Positions 38,408-57,272 of a DNA stretch of 64,000 nt are shown here, one piece after another. This DNA is from an uncultured delta proteobacterium. Its GTDB lineage: Bacteria > Myxococcota > Myxococcia > Myxococcales > Anaeromyxobacteraceae. The stretch spans positions 544,001-608,000 of the forward strand of contig CAVYBH010000012.1 of NCBI GenBank assembly GCA_963766715.1, in the 5' to 3' direction. A program made the position numbers and the translations under genes. Position 1 is the stretch's first letter. The number at the start of each line of letters is the position of its first letter. The notes beneath the pieces are model-generated. The model saw nothing but the letters and a program-made list of their open reading frames with translations, was not told the origin of the DNA and ran no database searches.

Positions 38408-38429
38408 GCAAATCGGCGTCTGCTGAACC

Positions 38430-38462
38430 GAAGGGCCGGGCAACCGGCCCTTCTTCTTTTTC
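38430..38462 (+). terminator. Intrinsic terminator
   Basis: GAAGGGCCGG-GCAA-CCGGCCCTTC hairpin followed by a T-rich tract. Confidence 0.85.
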
Positions 38463-38471
38463 CGGGGTCCG

Positions 38472-41112
38472 CTACTCGAGCCGGCGCTTCATCGCGGCGA
38501 GCAGGTTCAGGGCCTCGAGCGGCGTCAGCGAATCGAGTGCGAGCTCGCGGAGCTCGGTGCGGAGCCGTTCGACCCGGGGATCGGGCGCGGCGAAGAGCCC
38601 GAGCTGGTCGGCGCGCGCGGCGTCACGCCGACGGGATCCGCGCGCCAGCGCGGCGTGGCCGGCATCGTCGACCTCGAGCGATTCCAGGTTGCGCAGGATC
38701 TCCCGTGCCCGGACCAGCACCTCGGCCGGCAGCCCGGCCAGCTTGGCCACCTCGATGCCGTAGCTCCGGGAGGCCCCACCGGCCACGAGCTTCCGCAGGA
38801 AGACGACCTTGTCTCCCACCTCGCGCACGGCGACCGTGAGGTTCCGGACGCGCGGACGCTCCCGGGCCAGGTCCTGGAGCTCGTGGTAGTGGGTCGCGAA
38901 GAGCGTCCGGCACCCGGTCCTGTCGTGCAGGTGCTCGGCCACCGCCCAGGCGATCGACAGGCCGTCGAAGGTGGAGGTGCCGCGCCCGATCTCGTCGAGG
39001 ATGACGAAGGAGCGACGGGTGGCGTTGTGCAGGATCGCCGCGGTCTCCGTCATCTCCACCATGAAGGTGGATCGTCCGCGAGCCAGGTCGTCGGAGGCGC
39101 CCACCCGCGTGAAGATCCGGTCGACCACCCCGACCCGCGCGCGATCGGCGGGGACGAAGCTCCCCACCTGCGCCATGAGGGTGATGAGCGCGGCCTGGCG
39201 CATGACGGTGCTCTTGCCCGCCATGTTCGGGCCGGTGATGACGAGCAGCTGCCCGGCCTCGTCGGACGCGCTCGACGCCACCAGCACGTCGTTCGGCACG
39301 AAGCCGCCCGAGTCGACCGGCAGCGTGGCCTCGACCACCGGATGGCGTCCCCCCACGATCTCGAGGACCTCCGAGCCGTCGAGCGACGGGCGCCGGTAGC
39401 CGCGCTCGGCGGCGACCCGCCCGAGGGAGAGGAGCACGTCGGCGGTCGCGACCGCCGAGGCCGCGCCGCGCAGCCGCCCGGTCTCCGACACCACCCGCGT
39501 CCGGAGCTCCTCGAAGATCCGCTCCTCGATGGCGAACCGCTTCTCCTCGGCGCCGAGCACCTGCTCCTCGAGCTCCTTCAGCTCGGGGGTGACGAAGCGC
39601 TCGCCCCCGACCGTGGTCTGTCGCCGCTGGTAGTCGTCCGGGACCAGGTGGAGGTTGGGCTTCGTGACCTCGATGTAGTAGCCGAAGACCCGGTTGTACC
39701 GGACCTTGAGCGAACCGATCCCGGTGCGCTGCCGCTCGCGGGCCTCGAGCGAGGCGATGACTCCCTTTCCGTTCTCGGAGAGCTCGACGACCCGGTCGAG
39801 CTCCTCCGACCACCCGCGCCGGATCATCCCCCCTTCACCCGTGGTCGCTGGCGGCTCGTCGGCGACGGACCGCTCCAGGTGCCCTGCCAGATCCTCCAGG
39901 CCGCGCAGGGCGCGCCCGGTCTCGGCGAGCATGGGCGCCCCTGCCCCTTCGAGGAGGTCGGCGGCCGCCGGGAGGGCCGAGAGCGAGCTCGCCAGCGCCC
40001 GGAGGTCGCGGGCATTGCCCTGCCGGAGCGCGAGGCGCGAGAGCAGCCGCTCCACGTCCGCCACCGGGCGGAGCGCGGCGGCGAGGGATTCCCGGAGCAC
40101 CGCCCCCCCGACGAGCGCCTCCACGGCGTCGAGCCTCCGCTCCAGCGCCTCGACGTTCGTGAGGGGATACCGGAACCACTCGGCGAGCCGCCGCCCCCCG
40201 CCCCCGGTCACCGTCCGGTCGAGCAGGCCGACGAGCGAGCCCTTCCTGCGCGCGCCCGTCAGGGTGCGCTCGATCTCCAGATTCGCCCGGGTGCTCTCGT
40301 CGAGCAGGAGCACGTCGTCGGTGGGCAGCCGGGAGATCCGGTCGACGTGACGGGGCTCGGTGCGCTGGGTCTCGACCAGGTAGTGGAGCGCGCCCGCCGC
40401 CGCGGCCACCCCCCGCGACAGGTCCCCGACCCCGAACCCGTCCAGGCCGGCGACCCCGAGGTGCCGGGCCAGGCGGGCCTCGCCCCGGTGGAAGGCCTCG
40501 TCCTCCACCTGCGCGAGGGGCACGCCCACCGCCCTGGCCAGCTCGGCCCCGCGCGGCGTCGCCGCATCGGCCCGCGGACAGGAGCAGCTCCCGGATCCCG
40601 GCGCGGCAGAGCTCCTCGGCGAGGCGGGTGTCGGTGGCGACCTCGCCGCAGCGCAGCTCACCGGTGGTGGCGTCGAGGAGCGCCAGCCCTCCGCCCGCGC
40701 CGGCCGGGTCGAGGACCGCGACGCCCAGGTAGCTCGACTCGCGCGGCTCGAGCGAGGCCTCGTCGAGCACGGTGCCCGGCGTGACGACGCGGGTGACCTC
40801 CCGGCGCACGATTCCGGTCCGTCCCGGCGGCTCGACCTGGTCGCAGATGGCGACCTTGAATCCCCGCTCCAGCAGCCGGGCCACGTATCCCCGGGCGGCG
40901 TGGTGCGGAACGCCGCACATCGGGATCTTGCCGTCCCCCTTGGCGCGCGAGGTGAGCGTGATCTGCAGCGCCTCGGAGGCCTGGACGGCATCCTCGTTGA
41001 ACATCTCGTAGAAGTCGCCCAGGCGGAAGAAGAGGATCGCGTCCGGATACCTCGCCTTCACCTCGAGGTACTGGCGCATCATGGGGGTCGCGGGCTGGGC
41101 GATCTCGGCCAC
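38472..41112 (-). CDS. mutS: DNA mismatch repair protein MutS (frameshift near 40580)
   Basis: [51 protein letters not shown]. Confidence 0.95.
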
Positions 41113-46742: not shown

Positions 46743-46927
46743 GTGCCCGGATGCTATCGACCGCGGGGAGACGGTGTCAAACCGTGACCGCGCCGCTTGA
46801 CCGCCCCCTTTCCAGCCTTAGATCTTTGGACATGGTCCAGAAGTCTGGTCAGGGCGCCGGTTTTCCATCTGGTAAGCTCGATGCGCCGGAGCCGCCTGTC
46901 TCCGAGGAACTCGAGAAGGAGCACGCC

Positions 46928-49395
<2,468 letters not shown>

Positions 49396-49402
49396 CGAGC
49401 CA

Positions 49403-49434
49403 CGGGTAGGGCCGCCCCACGGTGGCCCTACCCG
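49403..49434 (+). terminator. Strong hairpin after lon (no U-tract)
   Basis: CGGGTAGGGCCGCC-CCAC-GGTGGCCCTACCCG. Confidence 0.55.
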
Positions 49435-49474
49435 GACACCCGTGTCATAGTGCTCCGGGCGACATCGGATCGAG

Positions 49475-51344
49475 GTGTCGCATCTCCAGGGGAGTGCCTT
49501 GATTCGCCGGATCGACCGCTACGAGCTCCTCGAGCAGGTAGGAACCGGTGGAATGTCGGTCGTCTATCGTGGTCGCGACACCGCGCTCGATCGCGAGGTC
49601 GCGGTCAAGATCCTGCACCCCCACCTCGCGACCAAGGCCGAGTCCCGGGCTCGCTTCTCCCGGGAGGCACGCGCGGTGGCCCGGCTCTCCCATCCGGGGA
49701 TCGTGGAGATCTTCGACTACTCCGGCGACGCCACCGACGAGAGCTGGCTCGTCACCGAGTTCGTGCGGGGCCGGACCCTTCGCGCCTTCGCCGACGAGAT
49801 GGGCATCCCGCTGCCGGAGTGCGGCGCGCTCGTGGGCGTGGCGCTGGCCGACGCGCTCGTCCACGCCCACGCGGCCGGCGTCATCCACCGGGACCTGAAG
49901 CCCGAGAACGTCATGATCGACGAGATCGGGGAGCGCCCCTCGGTGAAGCTGGCCGACTTCGGGATCGCCCGGATCCTGTCCCAGGACGACCGGATGACGA
50001 TGACGGGAGCGCTGGTCGGCTCGCCCAACCACATGGCGCCCGAGATCGTCGAGGGACGCGAGGCGGACGAGCGGTCCGACGTCTTCTCCCTGGGGACCAT
50101 CCTCTACTGGCTCTGCACCGGACGGTTTCCCTTCGACGCCCCGAACCCCACCGCCACCCTCCGGCGACTGGTGACCGGCGACTTCCAGGATCCCCGCAGC
50201 GCGAGCCCTGCGCTGAGCGAGCCCTTCGCCCGGATCATCCGCTCCACCCTCGCCCACGACCCGGAAGCGCGCCCCAGGAGCGCGGCGGACGTTCGCGATC
50301 AGCTCCTCGCGGCGTTGCGGCAGGACGGCATCGATCGCCCGGAGGAGAGCCTGGTCGAGTTCCTGACCGATCCCCAGGGCATGGCCGCGGCGCTCCGCCC
50401 CCGGCTCGTCGCGATACGCCTTCGACGCGGGGAGGAGCACCTCGCGCGCGGGGAGACCGCGCATGGCGCTCGACGCCTTCGACGGGGTACTCGCCCTCGA
50501 GCCCGGCCAGCCGGACGTCCTGCGTCACCTGGAGGCGATTGGCCGGCGGGACAGGAATCGCCGCTGGATCCGTCGCGGGGCTGCTGGCCGCAGGCGGCGC
50601 CGTGGTTCTCGGCCTCTCCGCCTTCGCGCTGGCTCGCTTCCCGGGTCGTTCGGCCCGCACGGCCGAGCCCGCTGGCGCGGCCGGTCACCTGCCGCGATGC
50701 CGGCCCGAAGCCCGCGACCGAAACCGCACCGGCAGGGGCTCCTGCTGCCGGGACCCCCGCGGTCGCCCCGGCAAAGCCAGGCCCGGTGAGCCGGCACTCC
50801 GCCTCCCCCGGCGGCTGCCTCCCCGGCGCCCTCGGCCTCGCCGGCGAAGGGCGGGGCCCGACTGGCGGCTGCCTCCGTTCCCCTCACCGTCCACGTCCGT
50901 CCCTACGCCCAGCGCGCCCTTCTCGACGGCGTCGAGGTGGCCTCCGGGCAGCAACGGGTGGTGTTCCAGCTCACCCCGGGCACCCATCGCCTCCGCATCG
51001 AGCACCCGTGCTGCGAGCCCTTCGAGCGGGACCTGGACACGGCCACGGCCGTTCCGGGCGGCGAGCTCAAGATTCCGCTCACGCCACGGCCGGGCAGCCT
51101 CCGGGTGACCGGCGAGCCGGCCACGCGCGTCTTCCTGGACGGCAAGCTCCTGGGAACGGCCGGCGACTCCCAGCGCGAGCCCTTCCGGGTCCCGGTCCCG
51201 CAGGACGGCCAGAGCCCGTACGAAGGCGAGGGCGAGCTCCGCCTCGAGCCGCCCGGCCGCCCAACCGCCACCGCTCCCGTCCGCATCCGGGCCGGCCAGG
51301 AGATCACCGTCCCGGTCGTGCAGCCGGAGGACCCCAGCCGATGA
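49475..51344 (+). CDS. Membrane Ser/Thr protein kinase with C-terminal PEGA-like domains (frameshifts 50460-50880)
   Basis: GTGGMSVVY, VAVK, HRDLKPEN, DFGIAR, MAPE, SDVFSLG; TM segment; VFLDGKLLG. Confidence 0.88.
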
Positions 51345-52185
51345 TCGCGCTCCTGCTCGCGCTGGCCCTCGCCACCCCCGACGCCGACGTGAAGCGCGCC
51401 AGGGACCGCTACGAGTTCGGGGCCTACGCCGACGCCGCCGGTGCGGTTCGCGAGATGCTTTCCCATACGCCCGGAGCTCCCGGAGCCGCTGGCCGTGGAG
51501 GCCTACCGGATCCTCGGCCTCTCCGAGTACCAGCTCGGGGACAAGGCGGCCGCCCGGACGGCCTTCGTCCACCTGCTCTCCATCGACCCCGATCAGACGC
51601 TCGACCCGTTCCTCGTGCCCCCGCCCATCGTGGAGTTCTTCGACAAGGTGCGCCTCGAGGCCGAGCCCGAGCTGGCGCCGCTGCGCGAGCGGAAGAAGCA
51701 GCTGAAGGAGCAGGAGCGGCTCGCCGAGGAGGCCCGCCGCCGCCTCCTGGCGGAGGAGCAGAATCCGCAGCGGCCCACCCTCCAAGATCGTGGTGGTGCA
51801 GGAGCACATCTACCTGCTCAACTTCCTGCCCTTCGGCGTCGGCCAGTTCCAGAACGGCGACAACACGAAGGGGATCATCATCGCCGTCTCGCAGGTGGTC
51901 CTGGGCGCGGTCAACATCGGCGCCATCTTCGCGCACAACGCCATCGCCGACAATCCGTCCCGGCGATGCTCGGTCTCCACGCCGAACAACTGCAGCAACC
52001 CGCCCATCCCCGACTCGGATCGCGCGCTCCTGCAGAGCATCGACATCGTGAAGTACGTCTCCGCCGGCCTGTTCTGGGGCGTCTACGTCTACGGCGTGGC
52101 CGACTCCCTGGTCCACTACGTCCCGCGCATCGAGACCGAGATCGGGCCCGGCAAGACCGCCGTGAAGCTCTCGTGGGCGTTCTAG
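51341..52185 (+). CDS. Exported TPR-like protein (frameshifts near 51470 and 51770)
   Basis: MIALLLALALA signal peptide, YEFGAY, AYRILGLSEYQLG, PFGVGQFQNG; ATGA overlap with the kinase. Confidence 0.7.
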
Positions 52186-52193
52186 GAGACCAC

Positions 52194-54005
<1,812 letters not shown>

Positions 54006-54009
<4 letters not shown>

Positions 54010-54594
54010 GGACCAGCGGGACCATGCGGCTCGGCGCCGTCCTCGCCGCGGCCTTCGCCGGCGCGGCGATCCTGGGAGGTTGCCCGATCCCGCAGCCCCT
54101 GCCGGGCGTCGGCTCCATCGACGGAGGCCGACCCATCACGCCGCCCCGCGTGCTCACCAGCAGCGCCGTGCCCGGGCTGGCCATGACGGACTACGGTCCG
54201 CTGGCGAGCTGCCCGCCCGGCTCCGACTTCGACGTCTCGGCCACGGTGGTCGACGAGAACACCGAGGAGCCGGTCGAGGTTCGATGGTTCGTGGACTACG
54301 ACCCGGACAACCAGCTGCTTGCGGACGCCGCTCTTCGTCGAGACGCTCCCGCCGCCCACCGATGCGACGCAGTACCTCCGCTACCCCAAGATCTTCACGT
54401 TCGTGCCCTGGGACTTCGATCGGCCGACCGAGCGCGTGCACGTGGTGGAGATGACCATCTCGAACGGCTTCCTGCCCGTGGGCGATCCCGTTCCTCCGGG
54501 ATCCCTGCCCAACCGCACCGCGGCGACGGGGTACGAGGTCCAGGTCTTCCGGTGGACGTTCCGGCCCACCCCGACGGGCGGCTGCGGCCCCTGA
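54006..54594 (+). CDS. Hypothetical lipoprotein (frameshift near 54320)
   Basis: AILGGC lipobox; VVDENTEEPVEVRWFVDY; ATGA overlap with the activator gene. Confidence 0.7.
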
Positions 54595-54601
54595 GCCGGC
54601 C

Positions 54602-55138
54602 TCAGCGCGTCGGGCGGGTGGCCTCGCGCGCGTGGCCGAGGGCCTCGGCGGCCGCACGGGCCAGCTCGCCCTGCTCCTCCGCGAAGCGATTCACCTGGGT
54701 GGTGTAGGCCCGGTGCAGCGCCAGCATGGCGTCCCGGGCGGCCGCCATCTCCGCGCGCTGCTCGGACCATTCACCCTTGGTGACATCGAGGCGGCAGCGG
54801 TCGGAGAGGTCCCCCACCCGCTCCTCCCAGCGCGGCGCCCAGTCACGCCAGGCGGCGAGCGGCGTCGAGCCCTCGAAGTGCGAGCCCATGGCCCAGGCGC
54901 GCTGGTTCTGCTCCTGGTAGAGCGCGTCCAGGTCGTCCATGCAGACCCGGAGCGTGGCGCGGGTCGGCAGGGCGCTCGTGGCCACCGGAGGCGCCCGGCG
55001 ACCCCGGCCGCGCAGGGTCTTCACGACGCTCGTGACGAGGAAGCCGACGGCCACCGCGATGGCGACGAAATAGAAGATCCATGCGGCCGTCCGGTACGGG
55101 CGGAGCCTGGGGTCGCGCGGAGGGGCCACGGCGCGCAA
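54602..55138 (-). CDS. Hypothetical protein with N-terminal TM helix
   Basis: WIFYFVAIAVAVGFLV helix followed by a helical domain with two Cys. Confidence 0.7.
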   Translation of the reverse strand: MRAVAPPRDPRLRPYRTAAWIFYFVAIAVAVGFLVTSVVKTLRGRGRRAPPVATSALPTRATLRVCMDDLDALYQEQNQRAWAMGSHFEGSTPLAAWRDWAPRWEERVGDLSDRCRLDVTKGEWSEQRAEMAAARDAMLALHRAYTTQVNRFAEEQGELARAAAEALGHAREATRPTR

Positions 55139-55165
55139 TCTGCCACTTGCTCCCCGGAGCCGTCC

Positions 55166-55204
55166 AGCATTTCAATTGTGAAATGCTCGGGATTCACTTA
55201 TGAA
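55166..55204 (+). promoter_or_regulatory. Tandem palindromic enhancer-like sites (candidate activator UAS)
   Basis: AGCATTTCA-ATTG-TGAAATGCT perfect inverted repeat and a second TTCA-CTTA-TGAA 22 bp downstream. Confidence 0.7.
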
Positions 55205-55280
55205 ACATTGACTTGCCCCCCTACCGGGTACTCCACCTGGACAAGGCCCTGATCCCGGCGGGTTGCCCGCCCGATATCCC

Positions 55281-55296
55281 TGGCCCCAGCCTTGCT
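55281..55296 (+). promoter_or_regulatory. Sigma54 -24/-12 promoter
   Basis: TGGCCCCAGCCTTGCT: GG-N10-GC spacing with TGGC and TTGCT; predicted start near 55307. Confidence 0.72.
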
Positions 55297-55306
55297 AATG
55301 AGAAGG

Positions 55307-55445
55307 CCGAGGAGCGTCACGGGTCGTCGAGGGAATCTCCCCCCCCGCAACCCCTATGGCGGCCTGGCGGCGCTTCGTCACACGGGAGGGGGCTTCCGGT
55401 CGGTCAACTCGTCCGACACCAGGCATCCGGCCGGGAGCCCGCCCA
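55307..55445 (+). ncRNA. Candidate sigma54-dependent small RNA
   Basis: Downstream of UAS and -24/-12 promoter, no credible ORF before the convergent mutL stop; C-run and a 14-bp terminal hairpin. Confidence 0.5.
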
Positions 55446-55454
55446 CTCCACCCC

Positions 55455-57272
55455 TCAGCGACGGCCCACCCGCTTCTCCAGCTCGGAGAGCGGCAGTTCC
55501 ACGACCACCGGGCGCCCGTGCGGGCATCGGGCCTTGAAGTCGATGGCGTCCAGCCCGTCGAGGAGCGCCCTGACCTCCTCGCGCCCCAGGTCCTGGTTGG
55601 CTCGAACCGCCGCGTGACAGGCCATGGTGGCGAGCAGGTGGTCGAGCGCCTCGTCGAGCGCGCTGCCCCGCTCGGCTTCCTCGATCTGCTGGGCCAGGTC
55701 GGTGAGCAGCGGGCCCATGCTCGCGCCGCCCAGGAGTGCGGGCGCGCTCTTCACCGCGAAGGCGTCACCGCCGAAGGGCTCCACCTCGAGCCCCACCCGC
55801 CCGAGCTCCTCGACCGCGCCCTCGATGGCCCGCGCCGCCGGCCGGCGGCAGGGTCACCACAGGGGGGACGAGGAAGGGCTGCAGGTCGAGCCCTCGCGTC
55901 CGCATCGCCTCCCGAAGGCGGTGGAACAGGAGCCGCTCGTGGCTCGCGTGCTGGTCGATCACGACCAAGGCGCCCGCCGGAGACGCGCAGAGCAGGTAGG
56001 TGCGCTCGTGCTGTCCGATGTAGCGAAGGGAGCCGAAGTAGCCGTGCGCCGCCGCCGGTTCCGGCCGGGGCGACAGGGCGACGGGACCGGACGGAGCCGA
56101 ACCCGGAGCCGGCCCGAACGGGAGAGAGCCCGGCAGCTCCCGCCCAGGAAGGCGAGCGGCGTCGAGCACGGCGGCCACCTCCTCTGCCGTGGCCTCGGCC
56201 GCGATCGACGCCGGAGGGGCGACCTGGCTGGACGCGTGGCGGGCGGGGAAGGATGCTGGCCGTGCCGGAGCCAGGGCGACGGCCGCAGCGCCTCGGAGAC
56301 GGCGTGGTGCACGGCATCGGTGGCCGCGCGCGCGTCCTGGAATCGCACCTCCAGCTTCTGCGGATGGACGTTCACGTCGACCCGCTCGAGCGGCGTCTCG
56401 AGGAAGAGCACGCCTGCCGGGTGGCGACCGGCGGGCAAGGAACCCGCGTAGGCGCGCAGGACCGAGTAGGCGAGCGCGCGATCCCGGATGAACCGGCCGT
56501 TCACGAAGAGGTAGAGCCCCCGCGACGTCGCGCCGGAGTGGTCCGGGGAGGTGACCACCCCGTGCACCCGGAACTCTCCCCGGCTCGCGTCGATGGCGAT
56601 CAGGTGGCGGGCAGCCTCCCGGCCCAGCGCCACCGCGGCCCGCTCCTCCACCGTCGCCCCCGCGGCCGTGGCCATGGTCGAGCGCCCTCCGGATCGGAGC
56701 GTGAACCCGACGTCCCGCCGGGCGAGGGCGAGGCGCACCACCGCCTCCGACGCATGGCCGGACTCGGCGGGAGGGGATCGCATGAACTTGCGACGGGCCG
56801 GCGTGTTGTAGAAGAGGTCCCGGACCTCGATGGTGGTCCCCCGCGCTCGCGCCACCTCCTCCACCGCGACGAGCCGCCCGCCCTCGACGGCGATCCGGGT
56901 TCCCACCACGACGCCGGCCTCTCCTTCCGGGCAGGTGTCGATCCGGAGGCGGGAGACCGAGGCGATGGCCGGGATCGCCTCGCCCCGGAACCCCATGGTG
57001 GCGATGGCCGAGAGGCCGTGAACGTCCCGGAGCTTGGAGGTGGCGTGCCGCTCGAGGGAGAGGACGGCGTCGTCGCGGCCCATGCCGGAGCCGTCGTCGG
57101 AGACCCGGACGAGGGACAGGCCGCCGTCGTCGATGTCGACCTGGATGGATCGAGCCCCCGCGTCGAGGGAGTTCTCGACCAGCTCCTTGACGATGGAGGC
57201 TGGCCGCTCGACCACCTCTCCGGCGGCGATCTGGTTCACGAGCCCCGGAGGGAGCACCTGGATGCGCGTCAC
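55455..57272 (-). CDS. mutL: DNA mismatch repair protein MutL (frameshifts between about 55840 and 56250)
   Basis: [64 protein letters not shown]. Confidence 0.95.

Follow-up and report, generated by a model that had tools for sequence, protein, structure and literature searches.

The locus between mutL and a divergent gene for a 178-aa protein very probably holds a real, conserved and previously undescribed small RNA (sRNA) gene, which is predicted from the sequence of the window (the whole stretch of DNA analysed, 64,000 nucleotides) and of related genomes. The RNA seems to be a remote paralogue of Pxr, and its synthesis would be driven by the activator PxrR; we put the probability of this at about three in four. 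Pxr is the best-studied sRNA of myxobacteria, and it gates fruiting-body development in Myxococcus. The sequence-only reading of this DNA had proposed a sigma-54 sRNA gene on the + strand. This proposal is supported: conservation extends over the enhancer sites, the promoter and the two hairpins, and the hairpins covary. The same reading had named Pxr as an analogy and claimed no homology. The likeness stands, but the relationship was understated, and the evidence points to remote homology. Copies linked to mutL, such as that of the window, are called the mutL type below, and those right behind pxrR the pxrR type.

Layout and conservation of the cassette

The features of the locus are listed in Table 1. 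The two TTCA-N4-TGAA palindromes are in tandem, with their TTCA starts at 55171 and 55193 (22 bp spacing) and their centres about 130 and 108 bp 5' of the predicted start at 55307. The core of site 1, TT(T/G)CA-N4-TG(A/C)AA, covers 55170-55183, and its arms are 9 bp long in the window copy. The TGAT-N-TT element is one that we take to be a possible IHF bending site. The palindromes, the 9-bp arms, the -24/-12 element, the C8 run and the mutL stop of the sequence-only reading were all found in their places. It had described one strong hairpin; the strong folding was confirmed, but there are two hairpins. The stop of mutL at 55455 belongs to the MutL_C match, and mutL is frameshifted in the present assembly. 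The rpoN gene was found in the window's genome, and a Pfam search with the 178-aa divergent protein gave no match.

Table 1. Positions of the features in the window
Feature	Position	Strand	Basis or remark
FHA-like/GAF sigma-54 activator, judged probably not the regulator	52182..54009	+	Domains; kept in cassette-less genomes; different HTH
Divergent 178-aa gene, left flank, outside the unit	54602..55138	-	In 72/81 family genomes
Enhancer site 1, predicted PxrR site	55166..55187	+	Sequence; core invariant in 26 homologues; motif also before Rfam Pxr genes
Enhancer site 2, predicted PxrR site	55192..55205	+	22 bp 3' of site 1
Partly conserved TGAT-N-TT element between enhancer and promoter	55250..55265	+	Alignments, mostly genera g1 and g6
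Sigma-54 -24/-12 promoter, TGGC-N7-TTGCT	55281..55296	+	TGGC and TGCT invariant in 26/26 homologues, which had been selected with this motif
Predicted sRNA of about 140 nt (5' and 3' ends inferred)	55307..55447	+	Promoter geometry; fold, -71.8 kcal/mol, z -2.35
Hairpin 1, putative counterpart of Pxr SL1	55309..55379	+	18-nt loop 55334-55351, C8 at 55339-55346
Hairpin 2, only in the mutL-linked copy	55384..55444	+	Covariation, 29 sequences
mutL 3' end, convergent right flank	55455..55796	-	MutL_C and DNA_mis_repair matches in separate frames

It should be mentioned that in the region 46751-57239 of the window the genes for lon, a Ser/Thr kinase, the FHA-GAF activator and mutL are all split across frames. 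These splits are most likely assembly errors of a long-read genome.

The promoter architecture observed is not due to chance. The pattern of site pair plus promoter has a single match in the window and none in 100 shuffles, and the 4.2 Mb genome as a whole has 340 loose sigma-54 motifs but a single tandem site pair. A looser form of the pattern matched 46 of the 92 family genomes, with no match for the reversed-pattern control. A scan of the locus for sigma-70 promoters found none, and a terminator scan found no U-tract terminator after the cassette in the window's genome. An Rfam scan of the locus gave no family at the gathering score, only two chance-level snoRNA matches within mutL; the RNA thus matches no known family. 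In one of four sequencing runs compared (X1), a 165-nt contig of a relative spans 55280-55434. Because it contains the promoter and is probably DNA, it is uninformative on transcription.

The statement that no credible open reading frame (ORF) follows the promoter was borne out. The ATG at 55356 starts a stop-free frame antisense to mutL. It was rejected as protein-coding: there is no codon bias, the GC content by codon position being flat (0.73/0.79/0.70), and any ATG within 150 nt of the predicted start was seen in just 8 of 26 homologues.

In a DNA search, strong matches were obtained in 8 of 13 genomes of the same genus and in two further genomes of the family. Homologous loci were anchored on the divergent 178-aa gene, and the best 30 loci were compared. 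Both sites, the promoter and hairpin 1 with a C7-8 loop are present in 26 of these best 30; in three the whole cassette is absent, leaving a gap of 43-58 nt, and one is ended by a contig edge. The -24/-12 element and the palindromes are kept in the 26 homologues (selected with the -24/-12 motif): no variation is seen in the site cores or in the -24/-12 bases, and the spacer between enhancer and promoter is freely variable.

The structure predicted by RNAalifold on a MAFFT alignment mis-paired the loop, because the upper stems are out of register between genera. Therefore, a hand-given structure of 14 pairs was counted for hairpin 1. The following covariation scores are inflated, because the sequences are related to one another and each structure was supplied by hand: in 26 sequences 94.8% of the pairs of hairpin 1 are formed (89.3% in shuffles, 43-57% when slid) and six pairs show two-sided change, a number reached by none of 500 shuffles; in 29 sequences 96.0% of the 12 pairs of hairpin 2 are formed, with 51 two-sided cells against 19.7 in shuffles. 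The count of covarying pairs in hairpin 2 was equalled by 107 of 500 shuffles, and this measure is therefore not significant. Hairpin 2 is missing in genus g10 and some others; it is likely to be a 3' stabilising or terminating stem. In many relatives outside the window's genus, a + strand U-tract is directly 3' of hairpin 1, and this fixes the orientation.

The mutL-linked cassette is also found in records labelled Anaeromyxobacteraceae, so that the window belongs to that family or close to it. Many mutL copies in genus g8 have degenerate promoters, and they may be decaying.

The sequence-only reading had allowed that the palindromes might serve only the divergent gene. This is not the case: the 178-aa gene stays where the cassette is gone, which means that the sites are not part of the divergent gene.

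A conserved ORF of about 50 aa, divergent from the enhancer and with a sigma-54-like site of its own, was observed in genera g4, g7, g8 and g9. It sits between the 178-aa gene and the enhancer (L045, L048, L050-L055, L238-L242) and remains in some RNA-less genomes. A search of the window's genome for this ORF gave no match.

Predicted working of the C-loop

In the mechanism that we propose, phosphorylated PxrR would bind both predicted sites, the DNA would bend, possibly through IHF, and sigma-54 polymerase would initiate near 55307. The C8 loop would be exposed on hairpin 1 and might pair, with no need of Hfq, with single-stranded G-rich stretches of mRNA; the likeliest places would be ribosome-binding sites, where pairing would lower translation. 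Hairpin 2 would shield the 3' end of the RNA. According to the passages found in one report on Pxr, a C-to-A change of the SL1 loop abolished function and left accumulation unchanged, and SL3 was needed for accumulation (PMC5684412). By analogy with these SL1 and SL3 genetics, hairpin 1 may act as the effector and hairpin 2 as the stabiliser. A search for Hfq in five genomes, in which the positive controls matched, found it in none.

We somewhat favour action of the C-loop by mRNA pairing. It is possible, if rather doubtful, that the gene and its regulator are as proposed and that the loop binds a protein, such as a poly-C/KH-type binder or an RNase adaptor. A pure C-run has little pairing specificity. 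The genome contains 123 G-run sites, of which just four are near a crudely called start, and ranking the 123 by duplex energy gave no convincing leader. No conserved target emerged from the target scans. In a scan of the genus for G7-purine-G before ATG, matches were found in 14 of 14 genomes, RNA-less genomes included; 30 of the matches were examined, and among the matches listed there is one recurring site, at which the window's genus has no full G-run. In the parts of the literature consulted, the direct targets of Pxr are described as still unknown (PMC11928866), and both target pairing and chaperone binding are allowed (PMC5684412). Against protein binding, the flanks of the loop differ between the paralogues and are conserved within each, as expected for distinct seeds: they are U-C8-GCC behind pxrR and AUCU-C8-GCA in the window copy.

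Two further hairpins with loops much like that of the RNA were observed at G000:C17 ~40330-40410 (- strand) and G000:C8 462099 (minus-strand count). Neither has a sigma-54 promoter or an enhancer nearby. For the latter, the antisense strand carries the leader of a small HTH-like ORF.

Relation to Pxr and to its activator

The Rfam model of Pxr, RF01812, matched 10 of 11 genomes of family f6 and none of 11 of the window's family. No match was obtained at the window locus up to E 5 or genome-wide up to E 10, and the gathering threshold (80 bits) was not reached. Among nine homologue loci scanned with Rfam, L066 alone gave a weak Pxr match (35 bits).

The enhancer gives a closer link. All six Pxr loci over the cut-off carry the identical paired-site motif and a sigma-54 element. 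A 14-mer is common to the mutL-type, pxrR-type and Rfam loci (51, 49 and 18 sites, respectively), with an identical base matrix. Positions relative to TGGC were measured in 25 of the 26 mutL copies; in these the first site begins at -108 to -112 and the second at -87 to -93. The corresponding starts are -109/-110 and -90/-91 in six of seven Rfam-Pxr loci, and -110/-88 in the window copy.

The hairpin was also compared through two models of our own. R1 was built from mutL-type hairpins only. Its weaker matches are the RNAs right behind pxrR, which have the sites, the promoter, the C-loop and a U-tract; against SL1 of Rfam Pxr it is weak (best E 0.033). R2 was built from 35 pxrR-type and related sequences, with no Rfam Pxr among them. 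It matched SL1 in all six over-cut-off Pxr loci (E 6e-8 to 8e-6), and 64 of the 92 family genomes, none of them in genus g1. It also matched 10 of 11 mutL-type loci (E 8e-11 to 2e-6), a result that is partly circular, as the training set had been chosen by a pattern that derives from mutL-type sequences. The copy in the window, which is more diverged, gave no match with R2 at E <=1, and a same-genus copy gave E 0.076. Since neither RF01812 nor R2 finds the window copy, it is linked to Pxr through synteny and R1. Homology is thus argued stepwise: the window copy would belong with the mutL type by synteny and R1; R1, and R2 in a partly circular way, would tie the mutL type to the pxrR type; and the pxrR type would be tied to Pxr by R2 and synteny. 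In addition, R2 gave 25 bits on a short stretch of the window, 38426-38462 (+), which is probably no more than an ordinary terminator hairpin.

When 185,579 species genomes were scanned with a pattern, 59 matches were obtained, spread over 58 loci. By a script rule, 33 of the matches are behind pxrR, 16 at mutL and 10 elsewhere; those linked to pxrR include named Anaeromyxobacter strains.

The RNA might work like Pxr, and it is best filed as a variant of RF01812 and not as a member, because three of the features for membership in that family fail here. The gene adjoins mutL and is not directly 3' of pxrR. SL2 and SL3 with the conserved 8-bp stem were not seen in a comparison by eye: hairpin 2 has no sequence likeness to SL3, and the window copy has no short SL2. 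The sigma-54 promoter with its upstream enhancer is alike in motif and spacing, and the SL1 hairpin with a C7 loop has its counterpart in the C8 within the loop of the covarying hairpin.

Some loci outside these types should also be described. L062-L065 and L066 are sub-threshold Rfam Pxr matches in smaller genomes; L063-L065 have no enhancer pair and L064-L065 no sigma-54 motif either, so that their RNAs may have changed promoter type. L129 and L130, from a record labelled Polyangiaceae and another MAG, have short C9-loop hairpins with a sigma-54 promoter; the enhancer is matched loosely, once or twice, and there is no pxrR within 2.5 kb.

An independent RNA that gained PxrR control and converged on a C-loop hairpin, without descent from pxr, appears unlikely. 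The upper stem is unlike that of Pxr, hairpin 2 is unique to the mutL locus, and the direct model scores are low in the window's genus, as convergence would predict; but the pxrR-linked copies have the basal stem GAAG(C/T)GC...GC(G/A)CTTC in common with the mutL type, and likewise the U-tract, the length of the hairpin and its distance from the promoter, and R1 retrieved these copies, which were absent from its training.

The mutL-linked copy is found across the window's family. Beyond it, the mutL 3' flank was inspected in 10 genomes, which represent six further families of the order, and none showed a cassette; the duplication to mutL therefore likely dates to the base of the family. Copies linked to pxrR occur in three families (f3, f5, f6) and, outside the order, in G204. 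When R2 was run across the phylum, 25 of 146 sampled genomes matched. Three of these are outside the order, and only G204 held up; G232 and G283 were rejected as chance, having no promoter and no sites. In the G204 locus (L223, G204:C128:5216-6850) pxrR shows 69% identity. Behind it are both sites in perfect form, a promoter for sigma-54, a hairpin with a C-loop, and a U-tract. After the duplication, some lineages would have retained both copies and others just one of them, either at pxrR or at mutL; the window's genus would have retained the mutL-linked copy alone.

Anaeromyxobacter reportedly lacks pxr and is not known to form fruiting bodies. In the portions of the literature seen, the origin of Pxr is placed at the base of Cystobacterineae (PMC5684412; PMC5568312; PMC8538405). 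We lean slightly towards an older origin: Pxr would be an old PxrK-PxrR-RNA module of Myxococcota, unnoticed across Anaeromyxobacteraceae, which had a non-developmental role first and was then co-opted as a developmental gate. It would have been duplicated to mutL at the family base, and in the window's genus the whole two-component system would serve a single RNA.

As for the regulator, the sequence-only reading had pointed to the FHA-GAF activator 1.2 kb upstream. This assignment found no support. Three same-genus cassette-less genomes (G002, G003, G010) keep that activator at 81-83% identity and lack pxrK-pxrR. A PxrR orthologue is encoded on contig C15 of the window's genome. It is 60-62% identical to PxrR of the Pxr loci, with an identical recognition helix, and the next-best activators reach <=50%. 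The C15 pxrR has a PAS-GAF histidine kinase gene upstream and is in the selB-nuoN interval. No pxr cassette (site, promoter, hairpin) was found between pxrR and nuoN in the window's genome or in nine other g1 loci; the mutL-linked RNA is the sole copy found in the window's genome.

The HTH of PxrR matched 82 of the 92 family genomes at E 1e-9, G003 through a 51% paralogue only. The mutL locus was scored in 72 of the 92; two were ended by contig edges, and the remaining 70 were tallied by hand. The cassette is present at mutL in 47 (several g8 copies being degenerate) and missing in 23. Of the 23, 17 keep a pxrR-linked copy, and six have neither PxrR (best activator <=51% identity) nor any copy, the enhancer-promoter pattern being absent in all six. 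The 47 fall into 25 with a further copy linked to pxrR, 19 in which PxrR is encoded but no copy could be found behind its gene, and three in which PxrR was not found by its HTH. In these three, PxrR is cut by a contig end in one, one is 70% complete and one lacks the locus in the assembly; the missing matches are likely due to assembly. None of the 70 has PxrR but no copy, and none has a copy together with a proven PxrR deletion.

In four of the six null genomes (G002, G003, G010, G078), selB directly abuts nuoN. G002, G003 and G010 form one clade (76% bootstrap), so that the clean co-losses represent two events, not four; the null loci of G097 and G103 are rearranged and are weaker cases. This pattern of co-loss fits a dependence of RNA synthesis on PxrK/PxrR. 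The synthesis of Pxr itself requires PxrR, as stated in the part of PMC10217877 that was available.

The FHA-GAF activator is probably not the regulator, and we consider it very unlikely that the RNA is real and is the output of that neighbouring kinase/FHA-GAF system. The activator is close by, and its gene is beside the mutL copy wherever the locus extended far enough; but it is kept where the cassette is lost, identical sites are present behind pxrR, distant from the activator gene, and the HTH of the activator differs from that of PxrR. It is highly improbable that the hairpins serve just to terminate transcription of mutL or the divergent gene, with the palindromes controlling the divergent gene and no small RNA made: this would fit the convergent position after mutL, a transcript that is only predicted, and the sharing of the enhancer region in several genera with the small divergent ORF and its sigma-54-like site, but + strand U-tracts follow hairpin 1, the loop sequence is conserved, in 23 of 70 genomes the whole cassette is missing between two intact neighbouring genes, and the small divergent ORF is absent from the window's genome.

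Comparison with known systems

If the RNA is a PxrR-driven paralogue of Pxr, RF01812 misses much of the Pxr family. A concrete predicted PxrR site is supplied; no published PxrR binding motif was found in the literature searched. A single C-loop hairpin is proposed as the minimal functional unit, consistent with the SL1 genetics. With homologues in culturable Anaeromyxobacter, another paralogue at an unlinked locus, and lineages from which regulator and RNA have disappeared jointly, the ancestral role of Pxr, the input signal of PxrK and target discovery would become directly testable. The natural single-copy, double-copy and null genomes would allow Pxr targets to be found by comparison.

Compared with Pxr of Myxococcus xanthus (RF01812; PxrK/PxrR = MXAN_1077/1078, Nla19/SpdR), the window copy has in common the sigma-54 promoter, the identical paired enhancer motif at equal distance and a long first hairpin with a C7-8 loop. 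Its host also has PxrK-like and PxrR genes in the selB-nuoN interval and no Hfq that could be found. In contrast, the window copy is at mutL, on another contig than pxrR, and gives no Rfam score. It has two hairpins where Pxr has three, with no SL2, a different 3' stem and a longer loop (AUCU-C8-GCA), and there is no U-tract in the window's genus. We know of no fruiting bodies in the host's family.

An unannotated single-hairpin pxr-type RNA is found behind pxrR in A. oryzae Red232, A. soli SG29, A. terrae SG22 and sp. PSR-1. It is likely a sister paralogue of the window copy and the bridge to Rfam Pxr. The basal stem, the C-loop, the enhancer motif and the promoter are common to both. The Anaeromyxobacter RNA differs in having a U-tract after one hairpin, an enhancer mostly 20-40 bp further upstream and an upper stem nearer that of Myxococcus Pxr, and it is missing from the window's genome. 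Copies of pxr in Anaeromyxobacter are unreported in the review passages found, and an earlier mention of homologues or of the enhancer is possible. In L104, L107, L110 and similar loci among the many of Anaeromyxobacter type, a short ORF, receiver-domain-like by eye, follows the pxrR-linked RNA, in the position of the GNAT gene pxrA in M. xanthus.

The tandem pxr paralogues of Cystobacter are described, in the part of the source seen, as duplicated and diverged, some with two stem-loops (PMC5568312). The likeness to the window copy is in this duplication and divergence of pxr and in the two-stem-loop form. The Cystobacter copies are in tandem behind pxrR, whereas the window copy is unlinked, has its own enhancer and replaced the original in whole genera. 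Tandem pxr-type copies that resemble the Cystobacter paralogues were also observed in L121 (three) and in L118 and L147 (two each).

More distantly, Qrr/LuxO, GlmY/GlrR and CrcZ/CbrB are activator-driven sigma-54 sRNA systems in which an sRNA is the main output of a two-component system. The likeness of the window's RNA to these is by analogy only, with an sRNA as the main two-component output.
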